A stretch of DNA of 64,000 nt from positions 13,005 to 77,004 of the forward strand of contig JAHPZI010000019.1 of NCBI GenBank assembly GCA_019058295.1, given 5' to 3'. Below are positions 51,399 through 53,233 of the stretch, in pieces (the stretch's first letter is position 1; every line of letters begins with the position of its first letter). A program made the position numbers and the translations under genes. A model generated the notes under the pieces. That model was not told the origin of the DNA. It saw only the letters and a list, made by a program, of their open reading frames with translations, and did no database searches. Origin of the DNA: Promethearchaeota archaeon. Its GTDB lineage: Archaea > Asgardarchaeota > Lokiarchaeia > Sigyniarchaeales > SOKP01.

Positions 51399-52575
51399 TT
51401 ACTTTTTTGATAAATATCGAATTTTAACCATTAAATCCCGGAGTTCCATTTTATCATTATCAGCAGTTATATATTTCTTTTTAACACCTTCATCAAGTGC
51501 GAACGTTGTAATTTGATTTCCTTGGAGGGAAACCATTTTACCGAAGTCACCATTCAACACGAGTTTCATGGCAGCTAATCCAAATCGTAATCCTAGGATT
51601 CGGTCAAATGAGTTTGGGTGTCCTGCTCTCATTGTATGTCCTAAAACAACGCTTCGTACTTCAAAATCCACACTATTCTCTTGAAATTCCTCTTTTAAAT
51701 CATCTCTTAGCTTTAATTCATCGACAAGGACTTGAGACATATTTAAAGCAGGTAATACAGGATTTCCAAACGTATCTTTTGGTAATTTATCAATTGTCTC
51801 TTGTGTAATTGTCTTAAAGTCTCGTTTAAGCGAATCTTGATCCGGATAAGCACCTTCAGAGCACGCAATAATATGATATTTATATCCTGCTTTAACTCTC
51901 TTTTTAAGAACTTCGATAACATCTCTTTCTAAACTGAACGGGGTTTCTGGGATCAAAATGATATCTGCACCACTCGAAATTCCACTATACATCGTAAGAA
52001 ATCCAGCATCACGTCCCATAACTTCTACAATAAAAACTCTTTGATGTGATCGTGCGGTGGTTGTTAAATTATCCATTGCATCCGATGCTAATTGAACTGC
52101 GCTCCAAAATCCAAAAGTGTAATGGGTTCCTGCTAGATCATTATCAATCGTTTTTGGGCAGCCAACGACCTTCGCATTTGCATGTTTATACATCAAATCT
52201 GCCACTCCTAATGTATCATCACCCCCTATGCATATTAGAGCATCGATTCCTAACTCATCAAACTTAGCAGCCAATTCTTTTGCTCTTTTTTCTTTTGATT
52301 CAACACCTTTAAAAGGATTAGTTCTGCTTGTATAGAGAATAGTACCACCTATGGTATGAAGGTCATCATGGTCAGCAATGTTAAGTGGTATTGTCAGATT
52401 TTCTAAAAATCCTTTCCATCCTTTAAGAATTCCAACACATTCAACACCGGCATCAAATGCTTTAAGCATGATACCATATAATACAGAATTTAAACCGGGG
52501 CAGTATACGGCAGTCAAGGAAAATCTTGAGCATGGCTCCGCCGCCCGTCAAAATACCAACTTTTTTAATTGTCAT
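51399..52575 (-). CDS. pfp: Phosphofructokinase, PPi-dependent type, split by a 31-nt putative intron (exons 52575-52536 and 52504-51399; 381 aa if spliced)
   Basis: Joining the exons gives MTIKKVGILTGGGDCPGLN; GGDDT plus PKTIDND are the PPi-type residues; EVMGR and LGH..R motifs. Confidence 0.9.
52505..52535 (-). other. Putative bulge-helix-bulge (tRNA-type) intron
   Basis: CCATGCTCAAGATTTTCCTTGACTGCCGTAT interrupts the Asp codon G|AC; both junctions fall after the second nucleotide of a 3-nt bulge flanking a 4-bp helix. Confidence 0.75.
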
Positions 52576-52666
52576 TTAAATTTCACTTTTTAACAATTAT
52601 TCAATATAGATTGATTAACCATTTTCGATTAAAAATATTTTGAAAAAGTCTTATTTTATTGTTTAT

Positions 52667-53233
52667 CTATTTTAAATTTTCAATTTTTTCAAAAGTATAT
52701 TTTGAACTATCTTCGGGGATTATATAACTCCCTCCGCTAAGATCAGCAATTTTTAAAGTAAATTCAAGTTGTCCTTTCATGGCTTTTTGTAAATCTTTTA
52801 AAGTATCTTTTATTTCGCTTTTTTCTGGATTACCATCTTCAAGATTATTTAGATAGATTGAAATAGCTCGCTCAAATCTGAGTAATATTCCTTCTACATT
52901 AGTATAATAAAATTCAGCACTCGGTCCAGGTTCTACTTTTAAATCCAATTCAGATATTTCTAAATTTCCTGTCGGAGAACGATATATTTTAGATTTTAGA
53001 TCGTTTTCTTCAGTGATTTTTAAAGTTATAATACCAGCATCCATTCTAGTAGTTAAAGGTATAATATCATTATTTTCAAAATCACATCTATTACATTTAA
53101 ATTTTAAAAATAGCATTTTATCCTTATCTGGAAGGTCGTATATAATCTGATTAATTAAAATGTCGCCATCTTTACATGCTGGACATTTAAAATTCGTAAC
53201 TTTTTCCTCTGTATTTTTCTTCTTTTCTTGCAT
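52667..53233 (-). CDS. ZPR1 zinc finger protein
   Basis: CPAC...CNRC, EPGP and TNVEG.L motifs. Confidence 0.9.
   Translation of the reverse strand: MQEKKKNTEEKVTNFKCPACKDGDILINQIIYDLPDKDKMLFLKFKCNRCDFENNDIIPLTTRMDAGIITLKITEENDLKSKIYRSPTGNLEISELDLKVEPGPSAEFYYTNVEGILLRFERAISIYLNNLEDGNPEKSEIKDTLKDLQKAMKGQLEFTLKIADLSGGSYIIPEDSSKYTFEKIENLK

Follow-up and report, generated by a model that had tools for sequence, protein, structure and literature searches.

The phosphofructokinase (PFK) gene of a Promethearchaeota archaeon (GenBank assembly GCA_019058295.1) lies on the minus strand of a 64,000-nt stretch of contig JAHPZI010000019.1, the whole of which was analysed here (the window). It is interrupted by a 31-nt insert, which is probably an EndA-type bulge-helix-bulge (BHB) mini-intron that must leave the PFK mRNA before the message is read; we put the probability of this reading at about 0.85. 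An intron of this kind had been proposed in a preliminary description of the DNA, and the proposal is supported by same-site inserts in relatives, their covariation and lengths, the ratio of nonsynonymous to synonymous change (dN/dS), a pair of EndA paralogues, and three further introns. The insert (CCATGCTCAAGATTTTCCTTGACTGCCGTAT, 52535-52505) splits, in phase 1, the Asp codon of the conserved motif GGGDCPGLN. The upstream exon opens at an ATG at 52575 and comprises 13 codons, the ATG included (MTIKKVGILTGGG), followed by G52536, so that its 3′ end reads ACG GGC GGC GGA G; the downstream exon starts at 52504 with AC TGC CCC GGT TTA AAT. Excision of the 31 nt joins G to AC, forming GAC (Asp), rebuilding GGGDCPGLN, and giving a protein of 381 amino acids (13 + 1 + 367). 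In the list of open reading frames (ORFs), the unspliced PFK frame (52462..52575) halts after 37 amino acids, and a second unspliced ORF of 372 amino acids (MTAVYCPGLN...) begins at a TTG within the insert. The insert borders, the ATG, the early stop, and the restored ORF were all found in the sequence and the ORF list as first described.

The exon-2 product aligns with the Pfam PFK profile from profile position 11 onward, indicating that just the glycine-rich head is missing without exon 1. In NCBIfam, the protein scored above the cut-off of NF002872 and below that of PFK_mixed. The motifs GGDDT and PKTIDND are a signature of pyrophosphate (PPi)-dependent PFK enzymes; the phosphoryl donor here may be ATP or PPi. 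The gene is the single PFK match in the whole genome (3.2 Mb, 79% complete), and its nearest homologues come from Promethearchaeota, Lokiarchaeia, Hodarchaeota, and Thorarchaeota sources, which identifies the host as an Asgard archaeon. No Rfam family matched positions 52350-52700 at E <= 1, and ARAGORN predicted no tRNA within the window.

The insert and its exon flanks form a BHB, in which the central helix GCGG/CCGU is bordered by two 3-nt bulges, A52537 G52536^C52535 and A52506 U52505^A52504. The order of the strands (5′ outer helix, central helix, and bulge; 3′ inner helix, central helix, bulge, and outer helix) is that of the archaeal tRNA motif, and both flanking helices expected of a BHB intron, h and h′, are present, with one bulged U in h. 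Only one excision rebuilds GGGDCPGLN, and its two cuts each fall between the second and third bases of a bulge. The pairs and bulges named in the preliminary description were all present, and its predicted cuts coincide with the borders that the reading frame demands. In the proposed mechanism, exon-1 GCGG of the PFK pre-mRNA would pair with intron CCGU, leaving the two 3-nt bulges on opposite strands, and the motif would be held by the exon-exon helix outside and the intron hairpin inside. EndA would cleave at the bulges (52536/52535 and 52505/52504), and an RtcB-type ligase would join the exons, recreating GAC and GGGDCPGLN for translation of the 381-residue PFK. We infer that the gene is transcribed through the insert, that the RNA is cleaved and ligated in this manner, and that the intron is circularised. 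Unspliced RNA would direct the synthesis of the 37-residue peptide, or of a TTG-start product that lacks the glycine-rich loop, and the spliced reading predicts the peptides GILTGGGDCPGLN, VGILTGGGDCPG, and VGILTGGGDCPGLNSVLYGIMLK.

The preliminary description had pointed to orthologs as the place to find same-position inserts with a covarying BHB, and both were found, in 30 of 161 genomes. A protein search of 154 genomes in the same order detected PFK in 144, and 140 loci were fetched, making 141 with the window's own. Thirty of these carry an insert exactly between GGAG and AYTG. An intact GGGD(C/A)PG is read in 105, and three more are intact variants (L070, L127, and L130); L134, whose available stretch begins inside the motif, is most probably intact, and the insert status was left unscored in L139 and in L053 (G059:C1:1697199-1698700), where the 5′ end of PFK is a run of N. 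An independent pattern search (GGAG, 29-33 bases of any kind, and CPGLN codons) likewise matched 30 of the 161 genomes of the class, and the reversed control matched none. The matches were confined to one family (f1; 29 of 134 genomes plus the window's own) and to 5 of 30 genera; the other six families gave 0 of 26. The inserts are 31 nt long at 23 loci, 32 nt at six, and 30 nt at one. The frame past the insert is thus inconstant, and excision alone restores the conserved protein. Two types of insert were distinguished, type A resembling that of the window and type B having a different and longer inner stem (for example, UUCGUAGUA/UACUACGAA in L043) with an identical central helix and bulges. 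The hexamer ACTGCC, which is found both in the window's insert and at the start of exon 2, had been put down to a possible local duplication. This idea, together with that of a target-site duplication, was rejected, since type B inserts (such as those of L043 and L110) lack the repeat; both copies complement the same G-rich exon strand.

Covariation was counted in a 29-sequence alignment (A1) with 28 distinct rows. The named structure was paired in 91.3% of the cells, compared with 36-49% when the partners were slid, and none of 500 shuffles reached its covariation score. The central helix was paired in 99.1% of the cells, with C-G replaced by U-A in three sequences and with swaps between G-U and G-C, and the first base of the 5′ bulge (column 21) was A in 29 of 29 sequences. 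In the 2-bp part of h′ (92.9% paired), both pairs, 24-48 and 25-47, covary (C-G/U-A and A-U/U-A), and hairpin pair 30-44 occurs as CG, UA, and AU; the intron hairpin as a whole was 82.1% paired under the type-A register. RNAalifold, unaided, recovered three of the four central pairs, along with the outer helix in a slightly shifted register. The change of column 51 from G to A occurs exactly in the three sequences in which column 18 has changed from C to U, a double change that is explained by the BHB helix alone. Codon usage differs between genes with and without the insert. The first and second Gly codons are GGC in 21/30 and 27/30 intron-bearing loci, compared with 6/88 and 14/88 intron-less ones; within the family, the third is GGA in 30/30 versus 44/88, and Asp is GAC in 28/30 versus 16/88. 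The exon codons fit the pairing of the fold, in keeping with the first impression that the G+C-rich codons flanking the insert are those expected if pairing is selected. Given the shape of the BHB, and its retention in relatives through compensating changes, the PFK message very probably needs RNA splicing.

Selection on the intron-bearing genes is purifying. The dN/dS ratio was 0.051-0.103 in eight of ten pairs of intron-bearing genes, the other two pairs being saturated at silent sites, and it was 0.068 for an intron-bearing versus intron-less pair, no different from the intron-bearing pairs. Exon 2 is intact over 366-367 residues, with full-length matches that contain no lesions other than introns. 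Compared with L008, the window's intron shows 4 changes in 31 positions, against a proportion of differing silent sites (pS) of 0.74; conservation of the intron thus greatly exceeds that of silent sites. In seven of 119 PFK loci (L008, L064, L083, L090, L092, L093, and also L004), none of ATG, GTG, and TTG occurs in the open frame ahead of GGG. ATA or ATT occupies the usual ATG position, a few bases past GGTGA, and initiation may be non-canonical.

At least four mini-introns of 29-32 nt, the PFK insert among them, are predicted in this archaeal family. PFK intron 2, found in 21 of the fetched loci and absent from the window's PFK gene, is an in-frame insert of 30 nt with one to three stops, which lies inside IGGDDT, between GGAG and the AC of Asp. 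Pairing amounts to 100% in its outer helix (AUCG/CGAU) and 92% in its 10-bp inner stem but falls to 68% in the central helix, where a G-A is constant; the motif is therefore a relaxed one. In a search for the RtcB family, five of the 154 genomes of the order had an rtcB gene broken at profile position 47, in each case by a 29-nt insert in GVGY/DINCG. With the cut set two bases leftward, which leaves the product unchanged, the rtcB insert forms a perfect BHB, 98.6% paired, that has UUGG/CCAA as its central helix, AU^A and AN^A as its bulges, and an inner stem of 8 bp. In one of these genomes (G044, 98% complete), no second RtcB match was seen; with the intron in what is apparently the sole copy, the ligase mRNA would itself need ligation.

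The fourth insert is found in the window's own genome, outside the window, in a gene for a MoxR-like AAA+ ATPase (29 nt, G000:C30:2337-2365), with central helix UCGG/CCGA and bulges AA^U and AA^G. Its exon 1 corresponds to positions 4-44 of Pfam AAA_5, and its exon 2 to positions 53-138. The predicted spliced product, ..DESI[KR]P..F.G[ST][FY]DPA.., is read in one frame in 25 of 30 fetched loci, 3 of the 30 being without the search motif. Two distant relatives (G022 and G149) carry a same-site 29-nt insert in which three stem pairs have changed on both sides; the insert is present in two other genera, and the 96%-identical sister species are without it. The rtcB and MoxR introns have a perfect 4-bp central helix and 3-nt bulges, and in all four introns the exon ends in GGAN before the cut and the required cuts fall at the canonical bulge positions. 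The MoxR-like insert was the sole candidate to withstand inspection in a genome-wide scan for BHB motifs whose excision restores an ORF, a scan which had been suggested at the outset as a source of other repaired genes. Others (C19:55600-55656, C1:130847-130877, and C30:55901-55934) were rejected by eye as adjacent genes or wrong frames. Ranking by helix length failed to single out real introns, the PFK intron itself being low-scoring, and the scan would miss relaxed motifs such as PFK intron 2.

The genome encodes two proteins with tRNA_int_endo matches (PF01974) above the cut-off, on contigs C1 and C26. The ORF on C1 (201 aa) has a C-terminal half bearing His and Lys, and that on C26 (also 201 aa) has no His, as expected by eye if the two paralogues are a catalytic alpha-like and a structural beta-like subunit. 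Asgard archaea are reported to have an (alpha-beta)2 EndA with an L1 loop that is linked to broad specificity (PMC5829648). Two EndA paralogues occur in 44 of 60 Asgard genomes (bioRxiv 10.64898/2026.10.13.758758). RtcB is present in four of five close relatives and in 143 of the 154 genomes of the order.

Several observations weigh against an EndA-type intron. The outer helix requires its bulged U, and the minimum free energy (MFE) fold, at -18.9 kcal/mol, is preferred to the BHB, at -13.0 kcal/mol; the MFE z-score is -1.05, and the central-helix pairs reach only about 2.5% ensemble probability. The MFE fold pairs exon-1 GGCGG with exon-2 CUGCC instead, and this helix is pairable in 100% of the cells (28 sequences). 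The full BHB was returned neither by single-sequence folding nor by RNAalifold. The compensatory changes trace to few insert lineages, and so represent fewer independent events than the cell counts suggest; in addition, a G-A mismatch interrupts the central helix of L121, and the inner junction is irregular in L113 and L115. Six of the 30 intron-bearing loci, all among the seven start-less ones, have no canonical start codon. The genome scan gave no excess over a decoy geometry, with 385 versus 338 decoy matches under a strict descriptor (version 1) and 312 versus 284 when at least two G-C pairs were required in the central helix (version 2), indicating that such introns are rare and that the descriptor alone is weak evidence. 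No RtcB match (PF01139) was found in this genome, which is 79% complete. In four metatranscriptome runs, seven contig pieces (90-99% likeness) fell on 51803-52486 and none reached 52505-52535 or contained a joint; ending short of the junction, these contigs are neutral on splicing. An exact search of metagenome contigs for the 20-base spliced junction gave at least 120 stretches that are G+C-rich (median 63%) and uninformative. Among the matches listed, 106 match PFK protein P0001 at all, with at most 53% identity, and as evidence of spliced molecules the matches were rejected, being bacterial PFK genes with the same codons by chance.

Some of these points would also suit a pseudogene, or a sequencing or assembly error, with a coincidental BHB-like fold. 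The early stop of the unspliced frame, the energetically disfavoured fold, and the missing start codons speak for it, as does the raw frequency of the descriptor. Of about 3.65e8 (position, length) pairs genome-wide, 17,733 satisfied this descriptor, which the PFK site also passes, and the decoy geometry came close in raw matches (16,595). The same descriptor count corresponds to about 5e-5 per pair, making a chance coincidence of a frame-restoring excision with a BHB unlikely. Moreover, the insert lies at the same base in 30 independent assemblies, exon 2 is intact everywhere under a dN/dS of 0.05-0.10, the insert is much more strongly conserved than silent sites, and the gene is the sole PFK gene of the genome. 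The preliminary description had named relaxed selection, and relatives without a structured insert, as the marks of a simple pseudogene; the low dN/dS and the retained structured inserts contradict both, and we consider a pseudogene or error scarcely credible.

The competing exon-exon helix raises another possibility, that the RNA is excised without a BHB or EndA, the GGCGG/CUGCC helix presenting a looped-out hairpin to another nuclease-ligase or to an activity not yet known. The greater stability of that fold, its universal pairing potential, and the imperfect central helix of PFK intron 2 would all be accommodated. However, the rival helix shows no double change, shuffles cannot tell it from chance, and, as it never changes on both sides, it is indistinguishable from coding constraint; the coupled change of columns 51 and 18 is explained only by the BHB. 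The canonical cut positions of all four introns, and the perfect helices and 3-nt bulges of the rtcB and MoxR introns, likewise argue for EndA. We know of no other archaeal RNA-excision system for such inserts, and judge this explanation improbable, although it is the least improbable of the alternatives weighed here.

Translational recoding would leave the RNA uncut, the ribosome bypassing the insert or shifting frame over it in the style of T4 gene 60. In gene 60, the ribosome hops from a GGA take-off codon, and a hairpin lies at the take-off site. A GGA codon precedes all four inserts, and the intron hairpin follows directly, superficially like that take-off site. The conserved Asp codon, however, is absent from the DNA and is made only by joining G52536 to AC (52504-52503), and the same is true of PFK intron 2. 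No GGA that could serve as a matching landing codon precedes the point of resumption, the gap varies among 30, 31, and 32 nt, and bypass would have no need of the covarying helix that exon 1 forms with the insert's 3′ end. Recoding is therefore very improbable. Nor is it easy to believe that splicing is unneeded because the 372-residue TTG-start protein is itself a working enzyme. That ORF exists, and gene callers yield comparable proteins (P0102, 373 aa, MTAEYCPGLN; P0002 and P0003, 356 aa). Such a product would lose GGGD from the glycine-rich motif; the 105 motif-bearing and three variant loci keep that motif intact, and exon 1 has been conserved as a coding region ahead of each insert. Type B inserts carry stops in the TTG frame (L056, L116, and L119), and PFK intron 2 puts stops inside GGDDT. 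We thus give this possibility almost no weight, and retain the EndA-type mini-intron as the best explanation of the insert.

The predicted introns are distributed patchily. On a FastTree phylogeny of 126 exon-2 proteins (15 of the 141 loci, L001-L141, were omitted as shorter than 300 aa or lacking the motif), the 27 carriers of PFK intron 1 imply a minimum of 21 changes, and the 19 carriers of intron 2 a minimum of 16. Genes that are nearly identical can have different intron content. L092 and L096 match each other perfectly beginning about 30 nt beyond the site, and their 5′ parts differ throughout; in L019 and L050 the upstream part is common to both, and all differences fall in the first 25 nt or so past the site. 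These patterns are recombination footprints. Among intron-less loci, none has the full intron-type junction, and nine near matches all have GAT, not GAC. A blastn-short search with five intron sequences found no second copy in the genome (best extra match, 16 nt), and the idea of a mobile repeat was rejected on this ground. We infer an exchange of short allelic tracts rather than transposition. The patchy distribution and the recombination footprints suggest elements gained and lost by allelic exchange, not a built-in regulator, and the patchiness among near-identical genes fits a neutral or selfish element better than the regulatory switch, reminiscent of HAC1/XBP1, that had been raised in the preliminary description. 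Such a switch drew no support from any of the results.

A broader proposal can be made only tentatively, and we regard it as possible rather than probable. One Asgard family might host a small population of EndA-dependent mini-introns in protein genes (PFK twice, rtcB, and the MoxR-like gene), placed in the most conserved catalytic motifs, always after GGAN, and gained, lost, and passed between lineages as short recombining tracts. As PFK exon 1 is only 40 nt long, a ribosome initiating there would sit over the exonic strand of the BHB, and splicing and translation would compete. Such competition might make the expression of PFK, and in some species of the ligase, dependent on splicing. The coordinates of the PFK features and of the further introns are collected in Table 1.

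Table 1. Positions of the PFK exons, the predicted mini-intron, and its BHB elements in the window, with loci of the further introns in relatives.
Feature	Coordinates	Strand	Remarks
Exon 1 of PFK	52536..52575	-	ATG plus 12 codons (MTIKKVGILTGGG) and G of the split Asp codon; the ..GILTGGG exon precedes the insert in 30/30 loci
Predicted 31-nt mini-intron, phase 1	52505..52535	-	Same-site 30-32-nt inserts in 29 other genomes; recovered by the BHB and ORF scan
Exon 2 of PFK	51399..52504	-	AC of Asp, 367 codons (CPGLN...), and stop; Pfam PFK, E = 1.9e-83
Central BHB helix, 5′ strand GCGG (exon 1)	52538..52541	-	Pairs with 52507-52510
Central BHB helix, 3′ strand CCGU (intron)	52507..52510	-	RNAalifold alone recovers 3/4 pairs
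5′ bulge, A G^C	52535..52537	-	Predicted cut 52536/52535, between bulge bases 2 and 3
3′ bulge, A U^A	52504..52506	-	Predicted cut 52505/52504, between bulge bases 2 and 3
Inner helix h′ and hairpin	52511..52534	-	CA/UG; UCAAG (52529-52525)/CUUGA (52518-52514); 6-nt loop
Outer helix h, 5′ strand GGGCG (exon 1)	52542..52546	-	93.6% of cells paired
Outer helix h, 3′ strand C-U-GCCC (exon 2)	52498..52503	-	U52502 bulged; can alternatively pair with exon-1 GGCGG
PFK intron 2, examples in relatives	L063:898-967; L007:562-631	L063, -	
rtcB intron loci	L144:331-409 (G044); L148; L149; L150; L151		
MoxR-like intron loci	L157:1455-1512; L178; L185		

The tRNA genes of the window's genome were also surveyed. 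ARAGORN predicted 44 tRNA genes and listed 12 with an intron; one of the 12, 'tRNA-Stop (tta)' at G000:C16:12782-14988 with a 2,114-nt intron, is most likely a spurious call. A 3-kb segment (G000:C22:30303-33335) holds 27 intron-less tRNA genes, leaving 17 scattered calls, of which 12 are those listed with an intron. A mobile element, a viral island of tRNA genes, or contamination during binning might account for the array on C22.

BHB mini-introns, as predicted here with strong comparative support, would lie in genes for a core enzyme of sugar metabolism, the tRNA ligase, and an AAA+ ATPase, across dozens of species of the archaea closest to eukaryotes. If the splicing is true, protein-mediated mRNA splicing would have a wider reach in prokaryotes, the gain, loss, and spread of introns in coding genes would become directly testable in Asgard archaea, and the inserts would form a natural minimal substrate set for Asgard EndA. 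A genuine population of mini-introns would further provide a living prokaryotic model of the spread and tolerance of introns in protein genes, in the lineage nearest eukaryotes. There are public PFK calls that are truncated at the N-terminus and start at an internal Met or at the intron TTG (P0002, P0003, and P0102, and perhaps P0115). If the introns are real, these would reflect a systematic annotation error, and truncated PFK calls would bias metabolic reconstructions.

A literature search found no title or abstract opening that reports BHB introns in Asgard coding genes, its scope being exclusive of supplements and subscription journals. A preprint on Asgard tRNA introns describes many independent gains and the occurrence of relaxed motifs (bioRxiv 10.64898/2026.10.13.758758). 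The presumed enzyme and motif of the PFK intron are the same; unlike the present case, the preprint covers tRNA genes, and its main text, as available, contains neither 'mRNA' nor 'cbf5'. In a 2026 review of non-canonical splicing, the available part mentions archaea for tRNA only. The HVO_1309 mRNA of Haloferax volcanii has a BHB intron in its 5′ untranslated region, the cleavage of which was verified in vivo and in vitro, and until that report, in 2020, cbf5 was the only other mRNA example (PMC7714728). In this intron, as predicted for that of PFK, the archaeal splicing endonuclease has an mRNA as its substrate rather than a tRNA or rRNA; unlike the PFK intron, the HVO_1309 intron lies in the untranslated leader and interrupts no codon.

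RtcB-type ligation also takes part in the unconventional mRNA splicing of animals (PMC8718801). The PFK intron resembles those of HAC1 and XBP1 in that a short intron within an ORF would be excised independently of the spliceosome, with a change of frame. In HAC1 and XBP1, IRE1 cuts in two hairpin loops, and splicing is regulated by stress. The predicted PFK cut sites lie instead in 3-nt bulges flanking one helix, and the PFK intron shows no sign of regulation.

The mRNA intron of cbf5 was reportedly described by Watanabe in 2002. The gene encodes a pseudouridine synthase, and in Crenarchaeota its pre-mRNA contains a BHB intron that is cut between the second and third bulge residues; as of 2009, archaeal pre-mRNA splicing was confirmed only for cbf5, introns in other genes being merely predicted (Yokobori 2009; PMC2738675). 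The two systems share an intron in an archaeal protein gene, a BHB that may be relaxed, a hetero-oligomeric EndA, and cuts between the second and third residues, as well as gain and loss among related species and annotation as frameshifts. They differ in that PFK is a metabolic rather than an RNA-modification enzyme, and the host an Asgard archaeon rather than a crenarchaeote. The present introns occupy at least four positions in three genes and are much patchier, with at least 21 changes on the 126-row tree. Splicing of cbf5 was demonstrated with complementary DNA, whereas the PFK intron is predicted from genomic sequences. It is of the cbf5 kind; together with its three sister introns, it would extend that kind to another lineage and to further genes, with several instances.

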